Shown piece after piece: positions 4,860-63,320 of a DNA stretch of 64,000 nucleotides; within the stretch, counting starts at the first letter, position 1, and the number at the start of each line of letters is the position of its first letter. Origin of the DNA: Mobula hypostoma (Eukaryota). The translations under genes were made by a program, and so were the position numbers. A model generated the notes under the pieces. It worked only from the letters and a program-made list of their open reading frames with translations. It was not told the DNA's origin and did no database searches. The stretch spans positions 174,346,001 to 174,410,000 of the forward strand of contig NC_086097.1 in assembly GCF_963921235.1 (NCBI RefSeq), given 5' to 3'.

Positions 4860-7497
4860 GAGTATAAGTAGATGTTAAGCTGACATGCAGAGACAGGAAC
4901 CAAGGTTGAGCATGATGGAACTAATGTTCTGCATTGCATCTATCTGAATGCAAGGATTATTGCAGGTAAGGCAGATGAGTTTAGAGCATGGATCAGTATG
5001 TATAATTACGATATTGTAGCCATGACTGGGACTTGGTTGTAGGGGGCATAGGACTGGCAGCTCATTGTTCCGGGGTTCCGTTGTTTTAGGTATGATAGAG
5101 GGGGAGATATTAAAGGAGGAGAGATGGCATACCTAATCAGCAAAAATGTCAGAAAGGACTGACTGGAGGACCCATTTACTGAGACTATATATGGGTGGAT
5201 CTGAGGAACAAGAAAGGGATGACCGCATTAATGGGATTATACTATATGCATTGGTCAGTAGGATTTAGAGGAGCAAATTTGTATAGAGAGAGAGAGAGCG
5301 CGCAAGAAAAATAAGTTGTGATAGGAGGTGATTTCAAAATTCCACAAATTGACTAGGATTCCCACAGTATAAAATAACTGGATAGAATAGAGTTTATCAA
5401 ATGTGTTCTGGAAAGTTTCCTTAATCAATTTATAGAGGCTCCAACTAGAGAGAGTGTGATACTGGATCTATTATTAGGGAAAGAGACAGAGCAGGAGACA
5501 GAAGTGTGTGTGGGGAAGTACTTTGGAACTAGTGATCATAATTACATTAGTTTCAAGATAATTATGCAGAAGGATAGGACTGGTCCTCAGGATGAGATTT
5601 TAAGTTCGAGAAAGGCCAATTTTTATGGCACCAGGAAGGATCTGGCAAGTGTGGGTTGGTATAGGTTGTTTAATGGCATAGGAATGCTTAGTAAGTGGGA
5701 AGTCTTCAAAAGTGAAATATTGAGAATACAGACTTTGTATGTTAGAATAAAAGGCAAGGCTAACAGGTTTAGGGGACCTTGGTTTTCAAGAGGTATTGAT
5801 ATCCTGGTTTAGAAGAAGTTACATAGCAGGTAAAGGCAGCAAGGAACAAATGAGCCTCTTGAGGAGTATAAGAAATCCAAGAGAACTCTTAAGAGGGATA
5901 TCAGGAGTATTAAAAGTAAGCATGAGGTTGCTCTAGCAGACAAAGTGAAGGAGAATCCCAAGGGCTTCTATAGGTATATTAAGAGCAAAAACATGTAGCA
6001 AGGGTCAAAACCATGGAGAATAATTCTGCAGAACCTGTCAAGGTGTCCTCTCAGATCTTGTGGGAGGCTAGTACAGAAATTGCAGGAGCCCTGGCAGAGG
6101 TATTTAAAATATTCTTAACCAAGAGTGAGATGCCAAAGTACTGGAGCATAACTAATGCTGTTCCGTTGTTCAGGAAAGGCTCTAAGAATAAGCCAGAAAA
6201 TTATAAGCCTGTTGTCAGTCATGGGTAGGATGCTGGGTATTCCAAGGAACAGGATAGATACGGCCTGATTAGGGATAGTCAACATGGCTTTGTGTATGGT
6301 AGGTTGTCTCTAACAAGTCTTAGAGTTTTTGAAGGAAGTTACCATTAAAGTTGATAAAGGAAAGGCGTTGGATGTTGTCGACTTGGACTTCAGCAAGGCC
6401 CTTGACAAAGTCCTACATGGGAATTGGTCCAGAAGGTTCAGTCACTTGGCATTCAGGATTTAACACTGGTGCAGTGGGAAAAGCTAGTGAGCGGTAGCAG
6501 ATGATTGCCTCTCTGGCTGGAGGCTAATGACGAGTGGTGTACTGCAAGGATAGGTCCATTGTTGTTTGTCATCTATGTTGATGATTTGGGTGATAATGTT
6601 GTAAACTGGCTCAGCAAATTTGCCAACGAAGACAAGACTAGGGGCATAGTGGATAGCGAGGAAGGCTATCAAAGCTTTCAGCAGCATCTGGATCGGCTGG
6701 AAAAATGGTTGAAAAATGGTAAATGGAATTTAATGCAGGTTTAAAGTGCTGCACTTTGGGAGAACAAAACAGGGTAGGATTTACTTTGTGGCACTGAAGA
6801 GTGCTATAGAACAAAGGGATCTGGAAATACAGATCCATAATTTCTTTTAAGTGGCGTCGCAGGAAGATAGGATTGTAAAGAGGGCTTTTGGCATGTTGGC
6901 CTTCATACATCAGAGTACGAGTACATGAGTGGAGATGTTACCTTGAAGTCATATAAGACGTTGATGAGGCCAAATTTGGAATATTGTGTGCAGTTCTGGT
7001 CATCTATTTACAGGAAAGATACCAATAAGCTTGAAAGAGTGCAGAAAAAATTTAGAAGGATGTTGCTGGTACTTCAGAGGCTGGGTTATCAGGTAAGGTT
7101 GAATAGGTTAAGACTTTTTTTTCCCCTGGAGCGTAGGAGAGTGAGAAGAGATTTGATAGGGACATACAAAACTATGAGGGGAATAGATATGGTTAATGCA
7201 AGCAGGCTTTTTACACTGAGGTTGGGTGAGACTAGAACTAGAGGCCACATGTTAAGAATGAAAGGTGAAATATTTAATGGGAATCTGAAGGGCAACTTCT
7301 TCACTCAGAGGGTGGTCCAAGCGGAAGTGGTAGATGTAGTTTTGATTGCAACATTTGAGTGAAGTTTGGATAAGTACATGGATGGAACGGGTATCGAGGG
7401 CTATGGTACTGCTGCAAGTCGATGGGACTGGGCAGAATAACAGTTTAGTACAGGTTAGATGGGGCCAAGGGCCTGTTTTGGTGCTGTGACTCTGTAC
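4860..7497 (+). mobile_element. Degenerate CR1-clade LINE, ORF2 (APE endonuclease plus RT) to 3' end
   Basis: The endonuclease start (C-I-Y-L-N-A-R) is at ~4937. ORF fragments 5456..5812 (ILDLLL, TSDHN), 6505..6744 (KFANE) and 6925..7362 (RPNLEYCVQFWS, TRGH). Many stops and frameshifts. Confidence 0.9.
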
Positions 7498-7867: not shown

Positions 7868-9550
7868 TAAGATTCATTTTGAAAAGTATTTTAAGTTTAA
7901 ATTACTTCATCCTGAATGCCAGTTGTTCTAATCATGAGCAACATATGCTATTTTGTCAGGAGACTTTACAAAGATTACTGTAAATATCAGCTGCACATTC
8001 TCCCCAGGTTAGGGGCAGGGTTCAATTCCTTTGAACCTTTTCTAACTTGAACAGCTCTTGCAAGTCAGAAACGTGACCACAAACCAGACATCCAGGAGGC
8101 AAAAATGCTTACAGTCCCACTGCAGCCAGCAAATCCATCCTACTTGTCTCCCAAATGCTTGTTTGGATGAACTGACTGTATTTCTAACTTGGGAAGGGTT
8201 ACTATATGTTTAGAAGTAAGACTGTCCATGTATTGAGGTCTTTTTCTTGATTTTGTACTTCCTGAACGTTGAGCTGCTCTAGGTGAGGATCTCACAAAAA
8301 GAACACTGATTGAGAGCTTTATTTTATTTGTATGTTCTTAGCTACATTGAAAAATGCATAACTGCTTTGTGATATTTAAGTTTCAATTATAATCAGATGT
8401 AGTTGATTGGGAAGTAGGTCTGATATTGCATTCTTTCTGAGTAACGTAGGAAAACTGTGAGGCTGAAGCTGATTTATAAGTACAGTCACAGCAGCTTGTA
8501 GCACAAATAAGCCAAGGTCAAAGACAAGAGGAAACTGAATCTGGGGAGATTGAAGGTAGCTTACTGAGTGATAGTCTATTTAATGTGTAGATCATATAAA
8601 CAAATTAACACTGCTGAAAAAAGCACAGGTATTACGTTGAACATGCAGTATTGATTGGAATCAATTAAAAAGGTAAGGAGATAAATGCTTACAAGGTAAA
8701 AGCCTTATTTTTGGACATTAATTCAGAACAAAGAAATTGAAAAAATGCTTGGTAGATTTGACAGTTAAAATGCTTGGAGTTAACTTCTGTATTGCAGGGC
8801 TTAGAAAACTGATGCAAGCATAAAAATTAGATTTTGGAACTGCAAGTGAAGCCCATTTATGGCTATTTGGGCGATAGAAATTCGTCCTCGCAAAATTCAC
8901 AAATCACCATCCAAAAACTTAAGGTGTGGAATAAAATTCATTTTTATTGAATTTATGTGGAAAATAAATAAGGAAGCATGAAATGTAATTTTTGAACCTG
9001 TGTTTCCTGATGTATACGCAAATAATGTGGCTTTGTGTAATGGAAAATCACGGTATAGATTGCTTTCTAGGAATTCAACCTCTACCCCCTCCCATAACAT
9101 TGTGCTGTAATTCTAAATGAAGCATTAGATGTTAAACTTGAATCGTTGCAAATGAAATGTTTTTATGAAATATCTTGGGAGTAATATTTCTTGAAATGTA
9201 TAAATGTTAACTAATCCTCTGGGTAAAAATTAAATAAAATAATTAATGTTGCTGATTTTTTTCCTGTTTTGTGTTTTCCATATGTTATTAGAAAATTTAA
9301 TGTAATTTTTTTTTGCATTTTGCCATTATTAACAGTTGTATTTGGTGTGTGCAAGCCAGAAAGTCTGTACAAATTTCTGTGCTTTTCCTCGAGCTAGGTA
9401 AAGATTTGTAGTCTTTAGTGCTAGAATTTATAACAATAGAATGCACATTCGAATTATCTTGTGTTCGAATTTTGCTCCAGACCTGTTGGCATTTTGCAAA
9501 GGAACTAAATTGTGAGTATACTGTCTTCTGAGCAAGGATACTTCTCCTTA

Positions 9551-11177
9551 CAGTGGAATGCAAAAGTTTGGGCACCCCCAGTCAAAATTTTTGTTACTGT
9601 GAATAGCTAAGCGAATAAAAGATGAACTGATTTCCAAAAGGCATAAAGTTAAAGATGACATATTTCTTTAATATTTTAAGCAAGAAAACTTTTTTTATTT
9701 CCATCTTTTACAGATTCAAAATAACAAAAAAGGAAAAGGGCCCAAAGCAAAAGTTTGGGCGCCCTGCGTGGCAATAATTAGTAACACCCCCTTTGGCAAG
9801 TATCACAGCTTGTTAACGCTTTTTGTAGCCAGCTAAGAGTATTTCAATTCTTGTTTGGGGGATTTTTGCCCATTCTTCCTTGCAAAAGGCTTCTAGTTCT
9901 GTGAGATTCTTGGGCTGTCCTGCATGCACTGCTCTTTTGAGGTCTATCCACAGATTCTCGATGATGTTTAGGTCAGGGGACTGTGAGGGGCATGGCAAAG
10001 CCTTCAGCTTGCGCCTCTTGAGGTAGTCCATTGTGGATTTTGAGGTGTGTTTAGGTTCATTATCCTGTTGTAGAAGCCATCCTCTTTTCATCTTTGGCTT
10101 TTTTACAGACAGTGTAATGTTTGCTTCCAGAGTTTGCTGGTATTTAACTGAATTCATTCTTCCCTCTACCAGTAAATGTTCCCCGTGCCACTGGCTGCAA
10201 CACAAGCCCAAAGCATGATCGATCCACCCCCCGTGCTTAACAGTTGGAGAGGGGTTCTTTTCATGAAATTCTGCACCCTTTTTTCTCCAAACATACCTTG
10301 GCTCATTGCGGCCAAAAAGTTCTAGTTTAACTTCATCAGTCCACAGGACTTGTTTCCAAGATGCATTAGGCTTGTTTAGATGTTCCTTTGAAGCTTTTGA
10401 ATAGTACTTTTTGGCTGCAATGAGCAAAGGTATGTTTGGAGAAAAAAGGGTGCAGAATTTCATGAAAAGAACCCCTCTCCAGCTGTTAAGCACGGGGGTG
10501 GATCGATCGTGCTTTGGTCTTGTGTTGCAGCCAGTGGCACGGGGAACATTTCACTGGTAGAGGGAAGAATGAATTCAATTAAATACCAGCAAATTCTGGA
10601 AGCAAACATCACATCGTCTGTAAAAAAAAAACACGAAGATGTAAAGAGGATGGCTTCTACAACAGGATAATGAACCTAAACACACCTCAAAATCCACAAT
10701 GGACTACCTCAAGAGGCGCAAGCTGAAGGTTTTGCCATGGCCCTCACAGTCCCCCGACCTAAACATCATCGAAAATCTGTGGATAGACCTCAAAAGAGCA
10801 GTGCATGCAGGATGGCCCAAGGAACTCACAGAACTAGAAGCCTTTTGCAAGGAAGAATGGCAAAAAATCCCCCAAACAAGAATAGAAAGACTCTTAGCTG
10901 GCTACAGAAAGCGTTTACAAGCTGTGATACTTGCCAAAGGGGGTGTTACTAAGTACTGCCATGCAGGGTGCCCAGACTTTTGCTTCAGGCCCTTTTCCTT
11001 TTTTGTTATTTTGAAACTGTAAAAGATGGAAATAAAAAAGTTTTCTTGCTTAAAATATTAAAGAAATGTGTCATCTTTAACTTTATGCCTTTTGGAAATC
11101 AGTTCATCTTTTACTCGCTTAGTTATTCACAGTAACGGAAATTTTGACCGGGGTGCCCAAACTTTTGTATGCCACTG
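9551..11177. mobile_element. Palindromic Tc1-derived element: two inverted copies of the 3' half (transposase DDE C-terminus plus terminal repeat)
   Basis: TA|CAGTGG at 9549-9556 and CCACTG|TA at 11172-11179. ORFs 9813..10493 (-) and 10699..11022 (+) both encode PSQSPDLNIIENLW, and the - ORF also has WTDEVK and QQDNEPKHTS. Arms are ~9551-10327 and ~10400-11177. Confidence 0.95.
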
Positions 11178-11269
11178 TATGTGGAACCATTATCTCTAAG
11201 AGTTTCTCAAGATAGGAAGCAGCACATACAGGAAAGACAAGCTTAGTTTGTCATCACTATTATGATAAG

Positions 11270-11899: not shown

Positions 11900-13680
11900 C
11901 ATGAAGCAAGGAAAGACTGCTGGATTAAATTGTATTTATTTCAATGCAAGATGTCTTGACAGGTAAGGCAGATGAACTCAAGGCACGAATAGCTACATTG
12001 GAATGGGATATTGTAGTCATTACAGAAACATGCTCCAGGCTACAGGTGGGTTAGAGGGGGTGTGGGGTTGCTTTTCAATTTAAGGAGAACACGATAACAG
12101 TAGTCCAATATGAATTCATTCTGTGAGACTCTTTAGGTGAAACCGAGAAGTAAGAAGGGGGTGATCACTTTGTTGAGATTGTATCATACAGTATGCCCCC
12201 TAATTGTCAACAGGAATTAGAGGAACAGATATGCAGGGAGATTGCTCAAAGTTGCAAGAATAATAGGAAATTTTAAATTTTCTAATATAGATTGGGACTG
12301 CCAAAGATTTAGGGACTTGGATGAAGTTGAGGCTGTTAAGTGTGTACAGGTAAGTTTCGTCATGCAATATTATTGAAGGCCTTACTAGGGAAAGGGCAGA
12401 GCTTCACCTATTCTTTGGAAATGGGGCGGGACAGGTGACAGAAATGTCAGTGGGGGAGCACTTTAAGACCAATGATTATAGTTATATTAGTTTTAAGTTA
12501 GTTTTGGAAAGGGACCAATCTGGTCCTCAAGTTGAAGTTTTAAACTGGAGCAAAGGAAATTTCACTATGTTAGACATAAACTTGCATAACTTGATTGGAT
12601 TAGGTGGTTTGCAGTGAAAGGGACTTCTAGCAAGTGAAAGGCTTTTACAATTGAGATATTGAGAGTTCAAGATTTGCATGTTCCTTTTAGAGTTAAAGAG
12701 AATGCTGACAGAAGTATGGAACTCTTGATGATGAATGCTATTTAGGTTTTGGTTAAGAGAAACAAGGAGAAAAAGGTCAGGTATAGTCAGCTGTGATCAA
12801 GTGAATCTGGGAGGACTATAATGTTTGCAAGAGTATTCTGAAGAAGAAATTCTGAAGATTAGTATACTCAAGAAAGAAATCAGTAGGGCTAAAAGGGGGC
12901 ATGCGATAACTTTGGCGGAGAAGATTAAGGAGGATGCAAAGAGATCTTGTAAGTATATTAAATGAAAAAGAGTAACTAGAGAGAGACTATGGCCCCTCAG
13001 TGACTACAGGGAAAATATTTGTTTGGAACACAAACAAAATGCTGGAGGAATTCAGCAAGTCAGGCTGCATCTATGGTTGGGAATAAACCGTTGATGTTTT
13101 GGGCCGAGATCTTTCACCTAAGACCTGATGAAGGGTTTTGGCCTGAAATATTAGCTGTTTATTCTTCTGCATAGATGTTGCCTGACTTGCTGAACTCCTC
13201 TAACAGTTTGTGTGTGTTGCTCATGATTTCCAGCACCTGCAGAATCTCTATATTTATCATCTTGGTATGGTGATGCAAGAAGTGGGCAAAGTCCACAATG
13301 AGTATTTCTCCTTTCTGTGGAGAAGGAAATGAAGACTTAGGATCTTGAGATAGTTAGTGGGAATGGCTTGAGGATAGCCTGTATTACAGCAGAGGAGGTA
13401 TTGGATGTCTTAAAATGTATGAAGGCACTTAAATCTCTTGAGCCTAATCAGGTATATCAAAGAATACTCTAGGAAGTTAGAGAAGGAAGGAAGTTGGAGA
13501 AGTAATTGCGAAAGCCCCTGGCTGGGTTATATACATCATTATTAGCGGTGGGTGAAGTGCCAGAAGATGGGAGAGTGGCTAATGATACATTTTTACTTAA
13601 GGGCTGCAACGAACAACCCATGAACTATAGAGCAGTAAGCCAAATGTTTTTGGTAGGTAAGTTATTAGAGAAGACTTTGT
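11900..13680 (+). mobile_element. Degenerate CR1 LINE fragment (endonuclease and linker)
   Basis: LNCIYFNAR-like start at ~11925. ORFs 12435..12617 and 13506..13697 (GEVPEDGRVAN). Interrupted by a hairpin element at ~13027-13250. Confidence 0.8.
13027..13250. mobile_element. Older PLE-derived hairpin element with a decayed hammerhead motif
   Basis: Imperfect inverted arms AACACAAACAAAATGCTGG... / ...AACAGTTTGTGTGTGTT. CTGATGA-AGGgttttggCCT-GAAA lies at 13125-13148. Confidence 0.75.
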
Positions 13681-17881: not shown

Positions 17882-18970
17882 TCAGAATCAGAATCAGGTT
17901 TATTATCAGCGACATGTGTTGTGAAATTTGTTAACTTAACAGCAGCAGTTCAATGCAATACATAATGTAGAAGAAAAAAATAAGATGATAATAAATAAAA
18001 AGTCAATTACAGTATACATATTGAATGGATTAAAAATTGTGCAAAAAGAAATAATATATATTAAAAAAGTGAGGTAGTGTTCAAGGGTTCAGTGTCCATT
18101 TAGGAATTGGATGGCAGAGGGGAAGAAGCTGTTCCTGAATCACTGAGTGTGTGCCTTCAGGCTTCTGTACCTCCCACCTGATGGTAACAATGAGAAAAGG
18201 ACATGCCCTGGGTGCTGGAGGTCCTTAATAATGGATGCTGCCTTTCTGAAACACGGCTCCTTGAGGATGTCCTGGGTACTTTGTAGACTAGTATCAAAGG
18301 TGGACTAAATTTACAACCCTCTGCAGCTTCTTTCGGTCCTGTGCAGTAGCCCCCCCCAATACCAGACAGTGATGCAGCCTGTCAGAATGCTCTCCACAGT
18401 ACATCTATGGAAGTTTTTGATATACCAAATCTCTTCAAACTCCTAATGAAGTATAGTCACTGTCTCACCTTCTTTATAACTGCATTGATATGTTGGAACC
18501 AGGTTAGGTCCTCAGAGACCTTGACACCCAGGAACTTGAAACTGCTCACTCTCTCCACTTCTAATCCCTCTATGAGGATTGGTATGTGTTCCTTCGTCTT
18601 ACCCTTCCTGAAGTCCACAATCAGCTCTTTCGCCTTACTGATGTTGAGTGCCAGGTTGTTGCTGCGACACCACTTCACTAGTTGGCATATCTTGCTCCTG
18701 TACGCCCTGTCATCACCATCTGAGATTCTACCAACAATGGTTGTATCATCAGCAAATTTATAGATGGTATTTGAGCTATGCCTAGCTGCACAGCCATGGG
18801 TATAGAGGGAGTAGAATAGTGGGCTCAGCACACACCCCTGAGGTGCACCAGTGTTGATCGTCAGCGAGGAGGAGATGTTATCACCAATCTGCACAGATTG
18901 TATTCTTCCGGTTAGGAAGTTGAGGATCCAATTGCAGAGGGAGGTACAGAGGCCCAGGTTCAGTAACTTC
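17882..18970 (-). mobile_element. Rex1/Babar-clade LINE, RT C-terminus and 3' end
   Basis: ORF 18457..18894 has [19 protein letters not shown]...[10 protein letters not shown]...[19 protein letters not shown], the Rex1-type RT signature. The (TCAGAA)n tail is at 17882-17895. Confidence 0.88.
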
Positions 18971-19237
18971 TATGATGTTTCTTGTTCCTAGGAGAGGAAG
19001 GAATTGTTGATAGCACGATGGAATTCTTGATGGCTCATATAAGCCTTTTATGGCTCATACAAAATATCTTGAAATATGGATGCAGTAGGAAGTTCAAGAT
19101 GTAGAAATGATGACTTAATATTTGGCTGCCTGCATATTTTTATAGCTTATGTAACATGGGGCGTGCATCCCTTTTAGAATTCTACTGTGACCAACTGCTC
19201 TCTATTTTTGTTACAGTGTGAGCATTTAACTAGCAGG

Positions 19238-19447
19238 CAACAGGAATTCTGCAGATGCTGGAAATTCAAGCAACACACATCAAAGTTGCTGGTGAACGCA
19301 GCAGGCCAAGCAGCATCTATAGGAAGAGGCGCAGTCGACGTTTCAGGCCGAGACCCTTCGTCAGGACAGAAGGGTCTCGGCCTGAAACGTCGACTGCGCC
19401 TCTTCCTATAGATGCTGCTTGGCCTGCTGCGTTCACCAGCAACTTTG
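19238..19447. mobile_element. Young non-autonomous PLE-derived hairpin element (210 bp), 14-bp TSD
   Basis: ATTTAACTAGCAGG occurs at 19224-19237 and 19448-19461. 19279-19359 is the exact reverse complement of 19369-19449 (81 bp, 9-nt loop). The sequence matches the termini of the PLE at 37566-40603. Confidence 0.93.
19334..19367 (-). ncRNA. Minimal type I hammerhead ribozyme motif (intact core)
   Basis: The - strand reads GUC CUGACGA AGG-gucucgg-CCU GAAA CG UC^GAC. It has stem I GUC/GAC, the conserved CUGANGA and GAAA boxes, a 3-bp stem II, the palindromic ACGU in place of stem III, and a GUC cleavage triplet. Confidence 0.75.
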
Positions 19448-20254
19448 ATTTAACTAGCAGGGACTGGTTGCCTGTCTGAGAGCATACTTGCTGAATAAGA
19501 AATGCTCAGTCCTCTCCAAGTTCTTCACTTGAATTTTGAAATTTGATAGTTAATTCACTGGCTTTTCTCTAGAATCTTGGAGAGAAATACTGACTCATGG
19601 GCTTGTTAATAAAGAAAATATTAAACTGTTGAAAATTTATAAGAAAACCACTGGAGAGGGAAGAATCGAAAATTAAAACCTAAATTGATGTGGGGACTGG
19701 AGGTCCTCAAGGACCTGTTTTTTTTTAAATGACAATCAGTCCTGATGTTCAGTGAAGCAATTATGTCAGGATAGTTAGCAGAGCTCTAAAAATTCAGGTC
19801 GGACAATCTGATGTATGAAAATTGTGCCATATTTATTTACATCATTGCACATAAGCATGTATTAGTTTTCCTAAATCTTTCTGTCATAGATGCTATGCGT
19901 ACTACTGTAAAATAAAGCACCATCATGACACATTATTTTAAGTGTTATCTTGACCTGCTATCCAGGAAATTGATATGCATGCAATAATCCAAATATCTGT
20001 TCCAGATCATATAGATATGATTGTCATCCCATTGTACAAGTCCATTATAGTGTGAATTATAAGTGTCAGATTGTTAGACCTCTTAAAGGAGTCATTGGCG
20101 CCACTGAAGTTGAGATGACAGACTCAAGGTTCATGACAGCACCAGACTTTAATGTGCTAATAACAGTTCTCACATGACACTAATTATTGCAAGCTGCAGA
20201 TGATACAGTTTTATGTGGGTATTGTAGTCAAAATTTGTGACCAAACTTTGACTT

Positions 20255-22710
20255 GGCTGGCTGTCCTTCTGCCTGCAAACAGGCAGAGGCTAAAGAGCAA
20301 GGCTCCAGAGATTAGGACAACAAAGAAGTAGTCACAGGAGGCAGAGGAGCAGCTACAGGATTGCTTCAAGTCGGTGTACTGGGCCATGTTCAAGGACTCA
20401 TCTGTGGATCTGAATGAATACACCATGATTGTCATTGACGTTATAAAAACAGTCATAGATGAGTGTGTCCTCACAAAATCATTTAGAGTCTTTCCCAACC
20501 AGACGCCCTGGATGAACCACGAGATCCGCAGTCTGCTGAGGGCCAGATCAGAGGCATTCAAGTACAGATTTCCCCCGCCATCCGAAGGTAGAGCATTCCT
20601 ATGAAACGGTTCGTAAACTGAAATGTCGTAAAGCGAAGAAGCAATTACCATTTATTTATATGGGAAAATTTTGTGAGCGTTCGCAGACCCAAAAATAACC
20701 TACCAAATCATGCCAAATAACACATAAAACCTAAAATAACAGTAACATATAGTAAAAGCAGGAACAATATGATAAATACACAGCCTATATAAAGTAGAAA
20801 TACTTTTCCACAATCATTGCTGGCACTTCACCAAAGCGAAAATCTCACGCAAGCACTGTTGGCAGAAACACACTCTCCAGTAACCTTTAAGCTATGAAGC
20901 TGCCAAATCATACCAAATAACATGTAAAAATACACAGCCTATATAAAGTAGAAATAATGTATGTGCAGTGTAGTATCAATTACTGGAATTGGGAAGACAG
21001 CGCAGAGCACACTGATGATGGTGTGTTAGACTGAGTCGTTGCAGGCTGGGGTGGTGCAGCTCACCCTCCAGGCCGCCGACCGATACATTGCCGTGAAGCA
21101 TGCAGGGGTCCAGCGGTAGCCGGAAGGCACACAGCACATCTTTGAGAAAAAAGCCAAAATAAACATGCTAATTAATTAGGTGCCTCCCGACACGTAATTG
21201 TCAGCCCAGATCAGTGCCAATTGCCGATTGCATCGCCTCTGATCTGGGCCGACATTAGGTGTCGAGCGGCACCTAATTAATTAGCATGTTTATTTCTGCT
21301 TTTTTTTTTAAGATGTGTTGTGTGCCTCCCAGCTACTGCTGCATCCTCTGCGAATCAGTATCTGTCCGTGGCCCGGAGGTTGGGGTGGTGGGACACTGGG
21401 GTGTCATCTCATCGTTGACTATTTCCATTAGAGCAGGCAGCTCATCTTCTCCTATGACTGCCCGCCTTGATGTCGAAGGTCGAGGTTCGTCGTCTGCTGT
21501 GGTTGATGTGGAAGGCTTGCTTGACTTCTGAGCTTCACGCATTTTTCTATCATACAGTTCTTTGTAAGCACTCAAATCATCCTGCAAATATCCCCTAAAC
21601 CTACGTACCCTTTCAAAATTAAAGTCGTACTTTATCATTGCAGCGAAAATCTCACGCAGTTGCTTCATGTTCATTTTGCTACTGCATTTGGTTTCGATTG
21701 TTATCCTTTCCTCTTCCAATTGCATCAGCTCTTCATCTATCAGTTCTTGGTCATGGGATGCCAAAACCTCTTCAACAATATCTTCGTCAGCTTCCACAAG
21801 CCAAACTCGCGTTGTCCTTACTTCATTCACCATGATCGAAACGCTTAATTATGTCTAGTTTTACGCTAAGTGTAACACCCTTACGAGCTCTTTTAGGCTT
21901 TTCCAGTACTGTACCTCAGAACTCATCTTGGAAATGGCTGCTCACAGGCAGGTGTTAAAGCAATGCCGTTCCGAATCTGGGGGAGAGCGGCTGCTCGGGG
22001 CACGCTGCCTTTTATCGCGTGCTGATATTTTTCATAACAGTGAAAACATCTTCTGTTGGCGAAAACAGGGTACTAATGTAGGTCTTTCATAACAGTAAGT
22101 TTTCGTAAAGCGAACTTTCGAAAAGCGGGAGACACCTGTATATTGACTGGCTGCATCACAGCCTGGTATAGAAACGCCGAAGCCCTTGAGTGGAAAATCC
22201 TTCAAGAGGTAGTGAATATGGTCCAGTCCACCATGGGTAAAGCCCTCCCCACCATTGAGCACAACTATACAGTGTTGTTGTTGCAGGAAAGCAGCATCCG
22301 TCATCAGGGACCCCCACCACTCAGTTCATGCTTTCTTCTCACTACTGCCATCAGGAAGAAGGTACAGGAGCTTCAGGACTCACACCTCCAGAAACAGTTA
22401 TTACCTCTCAACCATCAGGCTCTTGAACCAGAGGGGATAACTTCACTCAACAACACTTGGCCCATCATTGAACTGTTCCCACAACCTAAGGACTCACTTT
22501 TAATGACTCTTTAGCTCATATTCTCAATATTTATTGCTTATTAATTTTGTGTTTGCACAGTTTTTGTCTTTTGCACCCTGGTTGTCCACCCTGTTGGTGT
22601 GGTATTTCATTGATTCTCCTTTGGTTATTGGATTTATTCAGAATGCCTGCAAGAAAATGAATCTAAGGTGACACATTTTTATTTTGATAATAACTTTACT
22701 TTGAAAAGCA
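20255..22710 (+). mobile_element. Rex1-like LINE remnants flanking a Tigger insertion (20255-20564 and 22139-22710)
   Basis: ORF 20374.. (FPNQTPWMNHEIRSLLRAR) and ORFs 22143/22255.. (TGCITAWY, LLPSGRRYRS). Confidence 0.75.
20565..22138 (-). mobile_element. Tigger/pogo-family non-autonomous DNA transposon
   Basis: TA flanks at 20563-64 and 22139-40. TIRs CAGATTTCCCCCGCCATCCGAAGGT / reverse complement CAGGTGTCTCCCGCTTTTCGAAAGT. ORF 21333..21833 resembles the acidic Tigger transposase C-terminus (VEEVLASHDQELIDEELMQLEEER). Confidence 0.85.
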
Positions 22711-23139: not shown

Positions 23140-23250
23140 ACAGAAAATGTTGGAACTACTCAGCAGATCATGCCACATCTGTGGGAAAAGAAACTGAGTT
23201 GGAATTTTGGGTCAAAGACCCTTCATCAGATTTCCAGCATTTGCATTCTC
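23140..23250 (-). mobile_element. Old PLE-terminus fragment with a hammerhead-like remnant
   Basis: The - strand reads CTGATGA-a-GGGTC-ttt-GACCC-AAAA, with the GAAA box mutated. Confidence 0.6.
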
Positions 23251-23699
23251 TTTGATTTTCACTCAAATTTTTTTGAATTTGAGCAATCAAATTTACACGC
23301 TGCCCCCATGGTTTAGCTCCTGAATCCTAGGTGTTGTTTCATGTTTTACTTTGCAAGTACTATTCCATGTATTATAACTAATTGATATCTATTAAACACA
23401 GACCATTGGGCTAAAGGAACATAGCACTCACCTGAAATGCACTGTGCATTTGTCTAATACTGTACAAAATCTCTGAATCAGTCTGGAACATTTCCTGCTC
23501 ACTTCCTTATGGAAGAACAATGTTCTACACTTGTATTATTCTTTGCATGATCAGGAGTCTGAGTCACTATTCAAACTGGATCACAGCTTCAAGGTACCTT
23601 GATTCCATTATTCACTTTTGATATTCATCTCTAAACACATAGAGCAGTGCAGAAAGTAACAATGTTATTCAAAGTTTCCAGCCAGGGTGAAGGTAATAA

Positions 23700-23810
23700 A
23701 CCAAGAATTTCTGCAGATGCTGGAAGTCCACACAAGGAACTCAGCAAACCAGGCAGCATCAATAGAGAGGAATAAAGGGTTGATGCCTTGTGCTGAGACC
23801 CTTCATCAGT
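23700..23810 (-). mobile_element. Old PLE-terminus fragment
   Basis: TCTGCAGATGCTGGAA...GGCAGCATC...GAGACCCTTCATCAG is homologous to 19248-19364. Confidence 0.65.
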
Positions 23811-25656
23811 GAATCTAGTTGCAAGATGACCCAGACCCATAGACAATATTCTGGATTTGAACTTACCAGGTTCCTATATAAGTGGAACTAGACATCTCTG
23901 CTTTTATACGCAAACTCTTGCAATGAAGATCAAAGTTCATTTGCCTTTCTAATTGCTGCCCTGCATATTAGTGACATGTGATTATTTCTTGTTTTCAAAC
24001 ACACTTGGGTCTCTCTTAGTCTTTCAGTCTCTGACCGTTAAAAATATATTTCTATTTATTTTACCAACTAATTATTTTTGGAGGAAACTTGAGTTGCCAC
24101 CCAAGAATACTGCTGTGATTCTAAGCACATGTCCCAATCTATCTTCAGTTCATTGGCTGGCAGTGAACGTTCTGAATGAAAAGAAAATCTTTTGTCTTTG
24201 TCTTCAGCATTTCTAGTTCGAACCCTATTTTAACCCCATAATATTCCATTTGCATCATCTTTGCATATTCACTTAGCCTGTCTGATTTCCCTTGAAGTCT
24301 CTGCACATCATTTCCCTCCATCTCAGAGGAAATCCTCCCACTATCAATTTTGTCCAGACCCCTCATTACTTTATATACTTCTGTTGGATTTCTCTTCAAC
24401 TCTCCTTCTTCTCAAAAGAAAACAGTCCCAGCCTCTTTAATCTGTCTTTGTACTTATAGTCCTTCATCAAAGGAAGCATTCGTATAAATTTTTACTGGAT
24501 TCTCTCCAATGTTCTCACATGTTTTCTATAATGTGGCAATCAGAATTCAGTCTGAACCAGTGTTTTATAAAGGTCCTTGCTCTTATACACTATGTCTCTC
24601 TTAATAAAGCACAAAGTTATCTATGTGTTATTAGCCACATTCTCAATCAGCCCTCCCTTACTTAAATGATTTGTGCACTCATGTCCAAGGTCTCACTACT
24701 CATGCATCCCTTTTAGAACATGATCCTTTATTTTATGTTGTACTTCCCCATTCTTCCTACCAGAATCATCAGCTTAGGTTTCTCTGCTTTAACTTTACCC
24801 ACTCATTCCACCTTATTTCTGTATCTTGCTACAGTCTGTTACGGTCCTCCTTACTATTCACAATTCTACCAAATCTTACTTAATTGACAATTTTACAGGA
24901 CTAGGTCATTACTACAGATTTTTTAAAAAGAAAGCCAAGGTCCATGGGAAGTGTCTGTCTTCACCTGCCTCTTGCCTGAGAAGCAGCCATTCACCATGAT
25001 CTTCAATTAGATATTACTTAGAACACCTCTTATCCATTGTTGTGCTTCACATGTACTTGAAATGCAATTATTTGCTTTATCAAAATTCACCTTATAGCTC
25101 ATGTACACCACATCAATTCTAGTACCCTTGTTGATTCCCTGTTATGTGATCCATATATTCTATCAAATTGGATAATCATAGTTTGCCCAAACTGGCTTTC
25201 CTTATGTCATTTTTTTTTATTGGCCCTGTTTCACATCAATGTTTCTAAAAGCTTTCCCATCACCACAGTTGCATTAACTGGATTATACCTTCTGGGTTTA
25301 TCTTACTCCCTTTCTCGAACTCACTGTGCTGATACTCCTTTGATGTTTAGGAATTTCCATATGTGGATATCTGAATTCTTTTAAGCTCCGAGTTCATGTC
25401 CCTCATTATTGGAGGAAATCATTTTGTCCTTCTCAAGTTCATAGCAGATAACTTATATGCAAGGAGCTGTAAGAGACTGCAGATGCATGAATATGGAGCA
25501 ACAAGAGCTGGAGGAGCTCTACAGGTAAGACAGCATTTGTGGCAGGGAAAGGAATTGTTAACATTTCAGGTCGAAACCCAAAATATTGATAGTTCCTTCC
25601 CCTTCCACAGATGCTACATGACCCACTGTGTTCTTCCAGTGGGTTGTTGGCTTATA

Positions 25657-36610: not shown

Positions 36611-37665
36611 AGCTGATGAAACTGAACAACATTTTGTTTCAGTCCTATATTAATTTTGCTAACTCTTTTTGTATCTTGTTTATTTTATTTTGTTATTCAT
36701 TAAGATTTTAGAATTATATTAAAATCTGTAGTGAGGATACATTTAAAATTAAAAAAGATTTGCTGTTTATTGCTAAATCATAAACCGTAATTGGTTTAAT
36801 AGATATTTCATGTTGTCGACGTTTATTCTGTTGGTGGGATGGTGTGCGTAGGATAACTACGGTATTTTGTAAGGGTAAATTTCCTAATTTTAAACAAATT
36901 CCACTGTTTTCACAGTCTTTCCTCAAGGAGCCATTCAACAAATGAATTCAGTTGCATTTGACTCCCAATTGACAAGCCATTTTTCAGCGTTAATGAAGTG
37001 TAATTAGAAACAGCAATAGATGCAAGCATTTTCTTGCTGAAATGATGAATGCTTATGCACACCATGTTTTTCATAAAGCACTCTATTCTGAGCAATGACT
37101 AAATGGCAAAAAAAATTTATTTATGTGCCAATGATTTAAAACTTAGCATATAATTACCTTTTAAGCAGTGTAAGACTCTAAGTCACTGATCTTGTAAAAT
37201 GGTTTACACAATGCTGTGCCAAATCAAAAGATGATTGTTAGGGTAGTGTGTTAAACATAATTAAAACCGGTTTGTTCTAAATCTACTCTTTGGAAATATT
37301 GTCCAGTTTGTTAGTTTGGGGAGCTATCACGTTTTAACTGCTATTTTGATAAGTGCTTCTTTGGCTGAAAGATACTTAGCGATATAAAAAGAGTGAAAAG
37401 TACATAGTAAATAGCCTTTTATTAAAATAACTACATCATTGTGACCTGCTTTCATTTTTGTCAAAACTCTTAGATTTTCAGTCAGTTCATTTTCCCATGT
37501 GAATGTCTCAACTCTTGTGCCTGCCATTCGATGGGTGTGGTAGGAAGAGAAAGGTTGGATTAATTTGCAAACAACAGGAATTCTGCAGATGCTGGAAATT
37601 CAAGCAACACACATCAAAGTTGCTGGTGAACGCAGCAGGCCAGGCAGCATATCTAGGAAGAGGTA

Positions 37666-37703
37666 CAGTCGATGTTTCAGGCTGAGACCCTTCGTCAGGA
37701 CTA
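37666..37703 (-). ncRNA. Minimal hammerhead ribozyme motif in the PLE terminal repeat (inverted arm)
   Basis: The - strand reads UAGUC CUGACGA AGG-gucucag-CCU GAAA CA UC^GACUG. Stem I is 5 bp including one U-G pair and the core is intact. The ACGU palindrome has changed to ACAU. Confidence 0.7.
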
Positions 37704-38541
37704 ACTGAAGGAAGAGTGAGTAAGAGATTTGAAAGTGGGAGGGGGAGGAGGAGATCCAAAATGATAGGAGAAGACAGGAGGGGGAGGGATGGAGCCAAGA
37801 GCTGGACAGGTGATTGGCAAAGGGAATATGAGAGGATCATGGGACAGGAGGCCCGGGGAGAAAGACAAGGGGGGGGGAACCCAGAGAATGGGCAAGGGGT
37901 ATAGTCAGAGGGGCAGAGGGAGAAAAAGGAGAGTGAGAGAAAGAATGTGTGTATAAAAATAAATAACGGATGGGATACGAGGGGGAGGTGGGGCATTAGC
38001 AGAAGTTAGATAAGTCAATGTTCATGCCATCAGGTTGGAGGCTACCCAGATGGAATATAAGGTGTTCCTCCAACCTGAGTGTGGCTTCATCTTTACAGTA
38101 GAGGAGGCCGTGGATAGACATGTCAGAATGGGAATGGGATGTGGAATTAAAATGTGTGGCCACTGGGAGATCCTGCTTTCTCTGGTGGACAGAGCGTAGG
38201 TGTTCAGCAAAGTGGTCTCCAAGTCTGCATCGGGTCTCGCCAATATATAGAAGGCCACATCGGGAGCACCGGACGCAGTATATCACCCCAGCCGACTCAC
38301 AGATGAAGTGTCGCCTCACCTGGAAGGACTGTCTGGGGCCCTGAATGGTGGTAAGGGAGGAAGTGTAAGGGCATGTGTAGCACTTGTTCCACGTACAAGG
38401 ATAAGTGCCAGGAGGGAGGTTGGTAGCAGTGGATGGGAGATCCCCTGAGTGGATAAAGTCGGTGATGGTGTGGGAGAAAATGGCCTGATGCTGCTTAGTG
38501 GGGTCACGATCGAGGGGTAAATAAGAGGAGGTATCCGCGAG

Positions 38542-40206
38542 TTGTCGCTGTGCCACACCATCACCGACTTTATCCGCTCAGGGGATCTCCCATCCACTGC
38601 TACCAACCTTATAGTTCCCACACCCTGCACTTCCCATTTCTACCTCCTACCCAAGATCCACAAACCTGCCTGTCCTGGCAGACCTATTGTCTCAGCTTGC
38701 TCCTGCCCCACTGAACTCGTTTCTGCATACCTCAACACGGTTTTATCCCCCCTTGTTCAATCCCTTCCTACCTATGTTCGTGACACTTCTCACGCTCTTA
38801 AACTTTTCGATGATTTTAAGTTCCCTGGCCCCCACCGCTTTGTTTTCACCCTGGATGTCCAGTCCCTATATACTTCCATCCCCCATCAGGAAGGTCTCAA
38901 AGCTCTCTGCTTCTTTTTGGATCCCAGACCTAATCAGTTCCCCTGTACCACCATTCTGCTCCGTCTGGCGGAATTAGTCCTTACTCTTAATAATTTCTCC
39001 TTTGGCTCCTCCCACTTCCTCCAAACTAAAGGTGTAGCTATGGGCATCCATATGGGTCCTAGCTATGCCTGCCTTTTTGTTGGCTTTGTGGAACAATCTA
39101 TGTTCCGTACCTATTCTGGTATCTGTCCCCCACTTTTCCTTCGCTACATCGAAGACTGCATTGGCGCTGCTTCCTGCACGCATGCTGAGCTCATTGACTT
39201 TATTAACTTTGCCTCCAACTTTCACCCTGCCCTCAAGTTTCCCTGGTCCATTTCCGACACCTCCCTCCCCTTTCTAGATCTTTCTTTCTCTATCTCTGGG
39301 GACAGCTTATCCACTGATGTCTACTATAAGCCTACTGACTCTCACAGCTGTCTGGACTATTCCTCTTCTCACCCTGTCTCTTGCAAAAATGCCATCCCCT
39401 TCTCGCAATTCCTCCGTCTCCGCCGCATCTGCTCTCAGGATGAGGCTTTTCATTCCAGGACGAGGGAGATGTCCTCCTTTTTTAAAGAAAGGGGCTTCCC
39501 TTCCTGCACCATCAACTCTGCTCTCAAACACATCTCCCCCATTTCACGCACATCTGCTCTCACTCCATCCTCCCGCCACCCCACTAGGAAAAGGGTTCCC
39601 CTTGTCCTCACCTACCACCCCACCAGCCTCCGGGTCCAACATATTATTCTCCGTAACTTCCGCCACCTCCAACGGGATCCAATCACTAAGCACATCTTTC
39701 CCTCCCCCCCCCCCCTTTCCGTAGGGATCGCTCCCTACGTGACTCCCTTGTCCATTCGTCCCCTCCCATCCCTCCCCACTGATCTCCCTCCTGGCACTTA
39801 TCCTTGTAAGCGAAACAAGTGCTACACATGCCCTTACACTTCCTCCCTTACCACCATTCAGGGCCCCAGACAGTCCTTCCAGGTGAGGCAACACTTCACC
39901 TGTGAGTCGGCTGGGGTGATATACTGCGTCTGGTGCTCCCGATGTGGCCTTCTATATATTGGTGAGACCCGACGCAGACTGGGAGACCGCTTTGCTGAAC
40001 ACCTACGCTCTGTCCACCAGAGAAAGCAGGATCTCCCAGTGGCCACACACTTTAATTCCACATCCCATTCCCATTCTGACATGTCTATCCACGGCCTCCT
40101 CTACTGTAAAGATGAAGCCACGCTCAGGTTGGAGGAACACCTTATATTCCATCTGGGTAGCCTCCAACCTGATGGCATGAACATTGACTTATCTAACTTC
40201 TGCTAA
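38542..40206 (+). pseudogene. PLE ORF (RT plus Cys-rich linker plus GIY-YIG endonuclease), N-terminally truncated, catalytic motif altered
   Basis: FYLLPKIHKP, GRPIVS, LDVQSLYTSI, KGVAMG, RYIED (YIDD expected), FLDL, YYKPTD; linker CKRNKCYTC; GVIYCVWCSRCGLLYIGETRRRLGDRFAEH. Confidence 0.93.
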
Positions 40207-40505
40207 TGCCCCACCTCCCCCTCGTATCCCATCCGTTATTTATTTTTATACACACATTCTTTCTCTCACTCTCCTTTTTCTCCCTCTGTCCCTCTGACTA
40301 TACCCTTTGCCCATCCTCTGGGTTCCCCCCCCCCTTGTCTTTCTCCCCGGACCTCCTGTCCCATGATCCTCTCATATCCCCTTTGCCAATCACCTGTCCA
40401 GCTCTTGGCTCCATCCCTCCCCCTCCTGTCTTCTCCTATCATTTTGGATCTCCCCCTCTCCCTCCCCCTCCCACTTTCAAATCTCTTACTAACTCTTCCT
40501 TCAGT

Positions 40506-40543
40506 TAGTCCTGACATAGGGTCTCGGCCTGAAACGTCGACTG
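40506..40543 (+). ncRNA. Hammerhead motif in the PLE 3' terminus, core mutated
   Basis: UAGUC CUGACAU AGG-gucucgg-CCU GAAA CG UC GACUG: CUGACGA has become CUGACAU (G8 and A9 lost). Confidence 0.65.
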
Positions 40544-43500
40544 TACCTCTTCCTAGAGATGCTGCCTGGCCTGCTGCGTTCACCAGCAACTTTGATGTGT
40601 GTTGGTTGGATTAATTACATCAGTTGACTTTTTCAAATTTAATTTTTTATTCATGTTCCTTTCACAGGTTTCTCAAGTATTGCTGTTGATTGACATTACA
40701 GGAAATTTGCTAGGTTGTTCTTTTGACTAAATACACACAAAAAAAATTTGCATCTATGATACAACCATAGATTTGTGCTATGCTCTACAAGTAGCAATTT
40801 GGAAAGCAGATGGAGCAGGCTAAAATAAACAATGGAGTATAAGCATAAGGAAACTTTAAAAGGAATTTCAATGCAAATATATATATAAGTAGGCCATTTA
40901 TATTTCTATTTCTGAAGGTGGAAGCAAGTTATTTGAATTTGTGGGATTTGACACCAAAACTAGAAGGCTGTGGCATACACAGACAGAAGATGCGTTGTTT
41001 CTTGTTCAAAAATAAAAGCTTGCTTTCTTTAAGATGATGAAGTGAGGTATCAAATAACCTAAACTTTGAATATATTTTCTAAGAGGTGTTTATTATTTGC
41101 ATATTGTGCACTGTGTGCTGTCTGATATGAAGAAATTCTTTGCAACAAGGTGTTAAATTCTGTGCTGAGAGTACTGACTGGAGGAGGGGACAGATGATAT
41201 TCTCATTCACCACTGGTAGTCAAAGTGCTGTGTGTTGCGGATTTGTGTGTGGAGTCTGATTTTATATTTTAGGAGGGTCGAGGGTAAAATTAATTTTAAG
41301 TTGCAAAGCAGAGGGGGTAGGGTCGAAAGGACACAAGGATTGGGAATTCAAGAGTTAAAGAAGGAGAGGGAAGAAAGAAGACATTGTACATCAATCTTGG
41401 ATTATAGCTGGATTTACAAGGCTGAAACGAAGTGACAGTGTTTCGACTCATCAGGCAATGATGGAGGCTGGTATGGTCATGAAGGTCCACTGCGGAAGAA
41501 TAAGAAACAAAAACTCAGAGATGATCCTTTAAACTGAGATGAGGAGTAATTTCTTCAGTCAGAGGGTTGTGAATCTGGAATTCATTGTCATTTGGTGTAT
41601 ATTAGTCAGAGTTTGATAGCTTTTTTTTGTGAAGTGTTCAAAGTTGTCACGGTGGTGCTAAATTTTAGTGATTAGGGTTTTGCTGATTCGTTCAAGATCT
41701 GACTGAAGGGAATTAGCAGTTTCTGAACCTGGTGGTGCAGGGCTGAAGGATTCTGTACCTTCTGCCTGATGATAGCTGCGAAAAGATGAACTGTAAATCA
41801 TGCTGGACAAATTTGCTTGAATTCTTTGAGGATATGAAAGGGAGAATTTATAGAGAGAAACCTATAAGTTGTTTGTTTTAGATTTCCAAAAAACATTAGG
41901 CAAGGTGCCATATAAGAGGCTGGTGCCTCAATTAAGTGTGTTCACCTGGATTGAAAACTGGCTGTCACATAGAAAACTGAGAGTTAGAGTAAATGAGTCC
42001 TTTTCAGGTTGGAGAGATGTAACTAGTGGAGTACCACAGTGAGTAGTTTTTGACTCATATTTCTTTATTAGTTGCATTAATAACCTGGATGAAGGAATAA
42101 AATGTAGGGTTCAAGTCTGTCTGTGATATGGAAGTGGTAGGGCATGTTGCCATGAGGAGATTGTGATCATGCAATGATATTTAGATAGGTTGAGTGTTTG
42201 GACAAAAACCCCAAAAAAATAATTTTGTGGGGAAGTGTGAGGTCATGCACTTTACCAAATGGAATTGGAAGGGAGATTATTAACTAAATGGAGAGAGACT
42301 GCAAATGAGTAAAATTCAGAAGGATCTGTGTTATCTAGTGCAACCTTAACAAGAAGCTAGCAGGCAGGTCCAAAAAGTAGTTAAGAAGGTAAATGACATT
42401 TTGGACTTCACTGCAAAGGGATTAGAGATAAAGGTTTTGTTGTAGTTGTACAGGGTGTTTGCGAGGCCTCAGCTGGAATACTGACAACAGTTTTGGTTCA
42501 CTTAGCAAAAATCGGATGTGACATTGGAGACAATCCAAAGGAAATTCACCAGGCTAATTCCTGGGCGAGAGGGTTGTTCCATTAAGAGATGCAAGGGAGT
42601 TTGGGTCTGTATTTCTTGGTTTTGGAAGAACGACTGTGATTTGATTCAGACATATAGGACCCAGATGGACTAACAAAGTATGGTGCCTATAAAAAGTATT
42701 CACCTCTCCCCTTGGAAATTTTCATGTTTTATTGTTTTACAACATTGAATCACAGTGAATTTAATTTGGCCTTTTTGACACTGGTTAACAGAAAAAGACT
42801 CTTTCATGTTAAAGCGAAATCGGATCTCTATAAAGTGATCTTAAATTAATTACAAATATAAAGCAAGATAATTGATCGCATAAGTATTCATCCCCTATGA
42901 GTCAGTATTTAGATGCAGTTTTGGTAGCAAATATAGCCTTGAATCTGTGTGAATTGGTCTCTGTGAGCTTTGCACATCTGGATACTGCAATATTTCCCCA
43001 TTCTTCTTTACAAAACTGCTCAAGATCTGTCAGATTACATGGGGATCGTGAGTGAACCTCCCTTTTCAAGTCCAGCCACAAATTCTCAATTGGATTGAGG
43101 TCTAGAATCTGACTTGGCCACTCCAGGACATTAACTTTGTTGTTTTTAAACCATTCCTGTGTAGCTTGGGCTTTATGCTTGGGGTCACTGTCTTGCTAAA
43201 AAAACAAATCCTCTCCCAAGTCATAGTTCTCTTGCAGACTGCATCAGTATTTCCTCCAGGATTTCCCTGTATTTTGCTGCATTCATTTTACCCTCTACCT
43301 TCACTGGCCTTCCAGGACCTGCTGCAGTGAAGCATCCCCACAGTATGATGCTGCAACGCTTCACAGTAGGGATGGTGTGTGCTGACGTGCAGTGTTCAGC
43401 CTACACCAAACACAGCGTTTAAGTCTGATGGACAAAAAGCTCAGTTTTATTTTCATCAGATCACAGAACCTTCTAGCTGACTTCAGAGTCTCCCACATAC

Positions 43501-47757: not shown

Positions 47758-48474
47758 AAACCCTAAAGTCAACCCGCAAAAAAAGGGGGATTGACAATAG
47801 GTTCGTCCCACGCACCCGGAAAGGTAACAGAACAAACAAGAGGTAACGGGAAGGAGAATGCGACCAATACTTTGGCAATGTAAGTAGCCCAAGAAAAAAA
47901 AACTGAAAAGTGAAGCCCCTCCCACCACCCCCCCCGAAACCCTAAAGCTAAATCTAAGATAGACCAGCCAGAAAGAAGCAAGCGCTAGAACTACCCCCAT
48001 GACTTCCAATAGACGCTCACTAAAAAAAAGTGTATCTATAAGAGGATCAGCTAAAGTTATAAAACAGTAGAGAAATTTAAAAAATATATACACCGATTAA
48101 AGCAAACACGATATAATACAAAGAAAAAACAGGTAAATATAAAGAAAACCGTTAACCAACAACAGACCATATAGTTAAATGAGAAAATGAGACCATTAGC
48201 ATAAACTAACAAGAAAAACTATAAAAAGTACGTTTGAAAACTACGAAGTTTAAGGCCTCAAAGGAAATACGTAAAATGATGCTGAGGGAATAGTCACCCA
48301 GAATCCCAAGGGAAAAAGAAAGGAATGATGCAGTTAGAAAAAAATTGGCAACCATATTAATTAAACCAAAAAAAAACTTTTCTGCCCTCATATAAAGCGA
48401 AAAAAAATTAAAAAAAAATTAAACCAAACAGATTAACTGCCTCCGAACAAACAGAGATGATTTAATAATTGCGA

Positions 48475-63055: not shown

Positions 63056-63320
63056 GACTCCTCCTTTTCTCCTATGGTCCTCTTGCCTCTCCTATCAGAT
63101 TCCTTCCTCTCCAGCCCTTTATCTTTCCTACCCACCTGACTTCACCTATCATCTTCTAGCTATCCTCCTTCCCCTCCCACCACCTTTTTTTTATTCTGGC
63201 ATTTTTCCCTTCCTTTCCAGTTGTGAGGAAGGGTCTCTGCCCAAAACATTGACTGTTCATTTATTTCCCTAGATGCTGCCTGAACTGCTGAGTTCCTCCA
63301 GCATTTTGTGTGTGTGTCTG
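63056..63320 (+). mobile_element. Old PLE 3' terminus (pyrimidine-rich tract plus decayed hammerhead)
   Basis: CAGTT-GTGAGGA-AGGGTCTCTGCCC-AAAA-CATT-GACTG at 63218-63255, followed by AGATGCTGCCTG...TTGTGTGTGT. Same layout as 40210-40603. Confidence 0.75.

Follow-up and report, generated by a model that had tools for sequence, protein, structure and literature searches.

The window, defined here as the whole stretch of 64,000 nucleotides of Mobula hypostoma contig NC_086097.1 that was analysed, carries at 19238-19447 an insert of 210 bp that lies between exact 14-bp direct repeats (19224-19237 and 19448-19461) and comprises two opposed copies of the end of a PLE retroelement. The locus is made up of the following parts.

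19224..19237, + strand: left copy of the TSD, 14 bp, present as a single copy at the empty site of organism B (run X5, record 17).
19238..19278, - strand: unpaired outer part of the long arm, consisting of the PLE tail (from the distal end to ~19269) and ~10 nt beyond the short arm.
19238..19367, - strand: long arm, inverted and tail-bearing, a 5'-truncated PLE 3' terminal repeat with 92% identity to 37572-37701.
19334..19367, - strand: minimal type-I hammerhead motif with complete core and a helix I of 3 bp; predicted cut 19337/19336.
19360..19368, no strand: turn, an 8-nt quasi-palindrome (19360-19362 complementary to 19365-19367) plus the extra base 19368.
19369..19447, + strand: short arm, forward and tail-less, 79 bp, starting inside the CUGANGA box.
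19448..19461, + strand: right copy of the TSD, whose first 2 nt match the element too (microhomology); run X1, record 8.

A preliminary description of this DNA, prepared from the sequence alone, had reported a 210-bp insert with an exact 14-bp TSD and mismatch-free arms, all of which is confirmed in the sequence, with both junctions also present in contigs. It had also spoken of a perfect 81-bp hairpin. The arms 19279-19359 and 19369-19449 do pair over 81 bp with no mismatch around a 9-nt spacer (19360-19368), but bases 19448-19449 are part of the right-hand TSD, leaving 79 bp paired within the insert. On the left side, the 41 nt at 19238-19278 have no pairing partner and form a one-sided overhang. 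With the CUGA box taken as zero, the long arm covers -3 to +126, and the short arm is nested within it at both ends. In 20 dinucleotide shuffles of the window, searched with spacers of up to 30 nt, the longest perfect hairpin measured 9-12 bp (20/20), against 81 bp in the real sequence. The probability of an exact 14-mer direct repeat is ~2e-5 for the 60 x 60 positions searched, and this 14-mer has only two occurrences in the window.

Outside evidence was drawn from read-derived contigs, as distinct from raw reads, of four runs (X1, X5, X9 and X12). Run X1 is from organism A and may be the sample behind the assembly, X5 is from the related organism B and X9 from organism C. Both junctions of the insert are present in X1 contigs, record 1 corresponding to 19000-19261 and record 8 to 19424-19700 with 0 differences each, and the two contigs carry the element in opposite orientation. 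The palindrome, for which the preliminary description looked to read support, is thus borne out at both junctions but not at the exact loop, which none of the listed contig pieces crosses, so that the centre of the insert is seen in the assembly only. In X5 record 17, sequence 19448-19700 (record positions 601-853) directly abuts 19000-19223 (record positions 854-1077), and 224 nt are skipped. These 224 nt equal the insert plus one TSD copy, which means that organism B has an empty site with a single target copy; its flanks show 8 differences over 477 sites. Coverage in organism C (X9) includes the right flank from 19448 onwards and is back at ~19176-19215, a pattern compatible with an empty site, with no listed piece holding the join. 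Run X12, only guessed to be RNA, contains family contigs, lacks the locus flanks and is uninformative on the locus. The insertion is real, missing from a close relative and recent, in agreement with what had been proposed from sequence. Because 0 mismatches in 79 bp cap arm divergence only at < ~3.7%, arm identity provides a loose age bound and the empty site is the better evidence of youth.

At 92-95% identity, the insert matches the end of a 3-kb element (37566-40603) that encodes RT and GIY-YIG domains, and the retroelement (PLE) origin suggested at the outset is thereby upheld. The features of this second copy are listed below.

37553..40616, no strand: 3-kb PLE insertion, head to head, with a 13-bp TSD (37553-37565 / 40604-40616) enclosing the insert 37566-40603.
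37566..38552: inverted, tail-bearing arm of the 3-kb copy.
38553..40603: forward, tail-less arm of the 3-kb copy.
38553..40206, + strand: 5'-truncated PLE ORF with RT, CX4CX2C linker and GIY-YIG.

The ORF gives a GIY-YIG match of 23.1 bits (cut-off 22.6) and an RVT_1 match with an E of 1e-4 whose 22.5 bits remain under the 29.6 cut-off. Its first Atlas matches (0.97) carry RVT_1 and GIY-YIG, while a search of solved structures returned one match, with a meaningless E of 0.91. The CX4CX2C linker is located at ORF residue 429; a CX2-5CxxC linker between RT and EN is described as defining the Neptune and Nematis clades (PMC8557442). This linker, together with the report of Neptune in fishes (PMC4209133), suggests that the family is a Neptune-like PLE, and the arrangement of RT with GIY-YIG at the C terminus in one ORF assigns the insert to the EN+ PLEs.

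The preliminary description had given the insert the same layout as the 3-kb element. The layout is indeed shared, but the ends differ, the tail end of the 3-kb copy lying 6 nt and its forward end 9 nt beyond those of the insert. The further claim that the insert is a miniature of the autonomous element is not supported. The two have different ends, and the 3-kb copy, 5'-truncated so that it starts mid coding region, lacks a start codon ahead of RT, has YIED as its RT catalytic motif and is not autonomous. Region 19238-19278 is identical to 37572-37612 of the 3-kb copy, and the extra base 19368 is absent from both 3-kb arms. Over 820 columns, the arms of the 3-kb copy show 24 substitutions, of which 10 fall at CpG, a pattern consistent with post-insertion decay. 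Its inverted arm (37566-38552) carries an internal deletion of ~1.18 kb between short similar sequences, and the 3-kb insertion restored in length only is a palindrome with ~2.1-kb arms. A direct terminal repeat (pLTR partial tandem) is absent from both the 210-bp insert and the 3-kb copy; the pLTR is a feature of full-length PLEs, whereas these two copies are both truncated (PMC8969392).

The PLE family is very abundant, with family sequence in 66,085 contigs of X1, 38,899 of X5, 9,721 of X9 and 3,983 of X12, counts that do not represent copy numbers. Loose family ends with long A-rich flanks cluster at 19238/19242 and 19268/19269 in X1 and X5. The family thus has two habitual end sites, ~30-38 nt apart, which bound the tail. 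The tail end of the 3-kb copy, at +132, is 37 nt from the second end site at +95. The three variants singled out in the preliminary description do occur in both arms of the insert and in neither 3-kb arm, as stated there, but the conclusion that they prove one template fails. The letters of the insert at 19309, 19319, 19330 and 19331 account for 31%, 74%, 35% and 66% of X1 depth, shares that are inflated by the 90% likeness filter; with 31-74% of X1 depth the variants are common family alleles, which two RNAs of one subfamily would share too.

The best 15 of 223 joints between family parts are head to head, with 15 distinct position pairs and offsets of 0-99 nt, and for most of these 15 the tail-bearing arm is indeterminable. 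Some family joints reach a depth of 48-227, against 7-9 for the locus flanks. A joint without base 19368, otherwise like that of the insert, is found in 38 (X1), 23 (X5), 6 (X9) and 0 (X12) contigs. Simulated ordinary sense copies align best on the left arm and without gaps under 5/5 scoring schemes, the scoring being our own and possibly different from that of the unspecified aligner in the mapping tool. Since ordinary copies never prefer the gapped joint, the contigs without 19368 are probably true hairpin junctions, and the turn of the insert seems to recur across three organisms, or to be inherited. By crude summed contig depths, the depth at 19368 is 3.2% of the adjacent arm bin in X1 and 2.4% in X5. 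The frequency of the insert's allele at 19330 is 2% in X5, compared with the 35% of X1.

Two further kinds of contig were observed. Joint 19336/19392 (X1; 2 contigs, depth 103) has both parts ending at the predicted hammerhead cut, with 22 tail-end letters between the parts and a palindromic 6-mer that makes the alignment ambiguous; this single case may record a template jump from cleaved RNA. Other contigs, in organisms A and B, go back from 19287 or 19293 inside the arm to the tail end 19238, which suggests short head-to-tail tandems of the element end at other loci. A 32-nt element pattern had 0 matches in metagenome contigs. Matches to a 20-nt pattern (7 metagenome, 2 genome and 0 viral contigs) were dropped, as 0/9 loci align over more than 35 nt.

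The long arm holds a putative hammerhead with CUGANGA, GAAA and NUH core and helices I and II, for which the imposed fold has an energy of -4.2 kcal/mol. The fold-back point had been placed inside the hammerhead core; this is correct for the short arm, which begins within the CUGANGA box, but the long arm keeps the core, which is whole only there. Helix I comprises 3 bp in the long arm of the insert, compared with 5 bp in the inverted arm of the 3-kb copy. The G10.1-C11.1 pair, which is among the features of the min-HHR (PMC4209133), is missing, a U preceding GAAA in all young copies. An Rfam search of the window at the gathering score, below which minimal hammerheads may fall, produced 0 matches. 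Free folding of the motif does not yield the hammerhead, and the stem of the whole insert reaches ~-178 kcal/mol as opposed to -4.2 for the imposed hammerhead. These folding energies indicate that a transcript across the insert should form the long stem rather than the ribozyme. Ribozyme activity at this locus thus appears unlikely, and in terms of predicted folding the 210-bp insert is most likely a dead-end copy.

Counted from the CUGA box, the long arm ends at -3 and the short arm begins at +5, as against a predicted hammerhead cut at +28. This puts the turn, which coincides with a 3-bp inverted match and one extra base, ~25-30 nt upstream of that cut, and for the insert it rules out a turn at the ribozyme cut itself. 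Of the best 15 of 223 joints, 4 have an end no further than 2 nt from the cut (p ~0.05), a weak signal taken from the top of the ranking. As both arms of the insert cross the cut site, the template would have been uncut or rejoined RNA; uncut RNA is the main substrate of an anole PLE in vitro (PMC11167929).

A profile search of the window identified further relics of PLE ends, which are given below, together with additional weak matches (E >= 0.04), one of them completing the relic at 23140.

13025..13249, no strand: older mirror-oriented hairpin of a diverged subfamily (~75% identity), with a turn at most ~2 nt from that of the insert.
23140..23262, no strand: old two-armed relic whose tail-bearing arm is tail only, not nested.
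23704..23812, - strand: old solo arm with tail, cut off at the CUGANGA box.
25477..25646, no strand: older decayed hairpin with its turn near the helix II loop.
63131..63318, + strand: old, tail-less, forward terminal-repeat copy, matched by the profile over 63164-63318.

The hairpins at 13025-13249 and 25477-25646, which had been cited as older instances showing that such structures recur, are confirmed as relatives. The tail-bearing arm encloses the tail-less one in 4/5 two-armed copies of the window, with offsets of 8, ~9, ~10 and 79 nt, those for two old copies coming from poor alignments. In the 3-kb and 13-kb copies the tail-less arm extends to ~+92, beside the +95 end site, and the short arm of the insert to +83, ~12 nt before it. 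Both arms of the 3-kb copy reach ~2.1 kb, with stops no more than 79 nt apart (p 0.03-0.06 if independent). The 5' ends of 5/7 PLE-end insertions in the window fall within ~10-17 nt of the CUGA box (13116-13128, 19360-19368, 23231, 23812 and 25575). The vicinity of this box is a truncation hot spot upstream of the cut, across subfamilies ~75% alike.

Other mobile elements occupy parts of the window. Region 9527-11201 is a Tc1/mariner-type element (DDE_3 match) with a long fold-back, the arms being ~93% alike over ~800 bp; more pieces of it are located at 1-117, 741-779 and 1948-2021. A 93-bp inverted repeat (85%) at 21106-21346 adjoins a 171-aa frame (21333-21848), is unrelated to the PLE and is possibly a DNA-transposon relic. 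On the minus strand, 44057-49122 contains a near-complete L1-like element in pieces, with ORF1-like domain, endonuclease, RT and zf-RVT. LINE-type RT coding fragments are present at 828-1845, 6871-7362 and 18457-18969, the last with an RVT_1 match.

The structure of the insert is best explained as a de novo, inverted, 5'-truncated PLE insertion, a reading to which we assign a probability of about 80% whichever of two routes was followed. Its anatomy is that of a single event, namely a target staggered by 14 nt, two opposed copies of the 3' end of which one is tailed, and a microhomology join. One integration event of a Neptune-like PLE would make the hairpin on the spot. The PLE GIY-YIG nuclease would make staggered cuts, 14 nt apart, in the two strands of an AT-rich target, the TSD being seen and the enzyme presumed. 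The last ~130 nt of the element would be copied twice, in opposite directions, from the two habitual end sites, giving the observed arrangement of a tail end on the left and a tail-less end on the right. Copying would end prematurely in both cases, close to the hammerhead motif's 5' edge, and the two copies would presumably then be joined head to head at the 3-bp inverted match plus one extra base.

For the route itself, double priming is preferred, if tentatively. Each cut strand would prime RT at one start site and the ends of the two cDNAs would be joined. The position of the tail-less arms of the 3-kb and 13-kb copies near the +95 site favours this route, as do the lack of nesting in relic 23140-23262 and in joint 19260>19369, and the 2-nt loop on a 3-bp stem, which is not predicted to form. 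By analogy, it is also favoured by the anole PLE, which cuts and extends both strands, prefers AT-rich DNA, has two internal RT start sites on either side of the tail and is a predicted dimer (PMC11167929). That the short arm of the insert stops short of the second end site, and that the insert's tail end lies 6 nt inside the one of the 3-kb copy, argue against double priming, and the nesting in 4/5 copies, together with the near-equal arm stops of the 3-kb copy, would favour fold-back or two copies of one RNA.

Fold-back is nearly as probable a route as double priming; it would give the same product and is included in the probability stated above. A single cDNA would run from the left target end, at the tail start, to 19367 and then fold back, or switch template, onto itself; 79 nt would be copied, and the product would be linked via the 2-nt match to the target overhang on the right. 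Nesting of the short arm at both ends is what such a path would produce, and the same nesting in 4/5 window copies, the 79-nt offset of the 3-kb copy, the perfect arms and the 3-bp inverted match at the turn all point in this direction. Self-priming of the antisense strand has been proposed for PLE palindromes (PMC3846280), and resolution by the nuclease has been suggested as the source of the tail (PMC8557442). Against this route, the stopping of tail-less arms near +92 to +95 needs a separate reason, the stem with its 2-nt loop and unpaired extra base is not predicted to form, and non-nested cases exist. The shared variants, as common alleles, do not discriminate.

It is rather unlikely that preformed hairpins, marked by their turn at the hammerhead's 5' edge, make up a lineage that PLE proteins re-transpose. 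Such a lineage would be a non-autonomous retroelement of MITE shape, transcribed and then reinserted as a finished hairpin. The joints without 19368 in 38, 23 and 6 contigs, probably real junctions, speak for such inheritance, as do the almost identical place of the turn in the 13-kb relic and the several other joints deeper than single copy. Yet the family shows many different turn points, the 13-kb relic belongs to another subfamily with ~75% identity, and depth at 19368 is alike in X1 and X5 despite the disparity of the 19330 allele. Judging from folding, a perfect RNA stem of 79 bp would also mask most of the cis sequence. An assembly or polishing artefact, with the palindrome or the identity of its arms created by the assembler, is very improbable. 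Inverted PLE structures do trouble assemblies (PMC8557442) and the loop is spanned by no listed contig, but contigs show both junctions without differences and with the element oppositely oriented, empty site and TSD are both clean, and the asymmetry of the arms is typical of PLE insertions. A DNA-transposon MITE with terminal inverted repeats, although also short, hairpin-shaped, non-coding and of a high-copy family, has next to no chance of being correct, as a 41-nt overhang on one side keeps the inverted repeats from being terminal, the sequence represents an RT element's end, ends and turn points vary, and the TSDs, which the preliminary description had proposed to compare with the fixed ends and 2- or 8-bp TSDs of such elements, measure 14 and 13 bp.

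Taken by itself, the locus is likely a neutral, lineage-restricted insertion that is usable as a presence/absence marker, and its value lies in being a very clean record of PLE integration. On the origin of inverted PLE copies, PMC3846280 calls for experiments and PMC11167929 presents the later steps as unvalidated. An abundant family with many young head-to-head junctions offers a counting test between double priming and fold-back. If the less likely hairpin lineage were true, it would constitute a retro-mobilised, MITE-shaped class present in at least 3 related genomes and still inserting; hairpins that moved as units would add a non-autonomous class to PLE biology.

In the literature outside subscription journals and Repbase, a search turned up no paper specifically on PLE hairpins of this short kind from cartilaginous fishes, which leaves their absence unproven. 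The 210-bp insert is the shortest form of a published PLE anatomy, in which a 5'-truncated copy lies next to an inverted one and a tail is present on one side only. Both the neighbouring inverted copy, itself 5'-truncated, and a tail of 30-40 bp are typical of PLEs (PMC8557442, PMC8969392, PMC3846280). Such a tail is present on one end here, with one end site at 19268/19269 and the other at 19238 or just beyond it, as are TSDs of variable length (14 and 13 bp) and a single target at the empty site in X5. Pen2a_Av of Adineta vaga and the general PLE scheme (PMC3846280; PMC8557442, Fig. 2 legend) show the same head-to-head truncated and inverted copies, with a one-sided tail, variable TSD and AT-rich target, and self-priming was proposed in 2013 for PLE head-to-head palindromes (PMC3846280). 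Unlike Pen2a_Av, the insert copies only the last 80-130 nt, without ORF or second direct repeat, and has perfect arms. The family is also abundant here (66,085 contigs in X1), compared with very few copies in the rotifer (PMC3846280).

PAc, a Poseidon element of Anolis carolinensis (PMC11167929), resembles the insert in its two end sites bounding the tail, in the upstream hammerhead and in copies that cross the hammerhead cut, as expected of uncleaved RNA templates. PAc belongs to the Penelope/Poseidon clade, whereas the family of the insert has the Cys linker of Neptune/Nematis, and the parts of the PAc paper examined contain no model for inverted copies (PMC11167929). The min-HHR of metazoan PLEs (PMC4209133) likewise combines CUGANGA and GAAA boxes with the lack of a helix III stem, a palindromic 15.2-16.2 and a location in the terminal repeat, and the occurrence of paired hammerhead motifs on opposite strands, separated by 100-700 bp, had already been noted (PMC4209133). 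In contrast to the min-HHR, the insert has U before GAAA, a helix I of 3 bp and a second arm without the CUGA box. Non-LTR retrozymes (10.64898/2026.07.22.740005) are similarly short, non-coding and derived from PLE terminal repeats with a type-I hammerhead, but are by definition head-to-tail tandems with at least 2 complete motifs. The insert is head to head with one complete hammerhead, and retrozyme identity is thus ruled out. In L1 twin priming, both target strands prime cDNA and the two parts represent different RNA stretches. An analogous 5' inversion within one TSD is known from L1 (twin priming is named in 10.1101/2024.12.14.628481), while the parts of the insert differ in being overlapping copies of the same stretch. 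The insert is an unusually clean example of a known PLE pattern and not a new kind of element.
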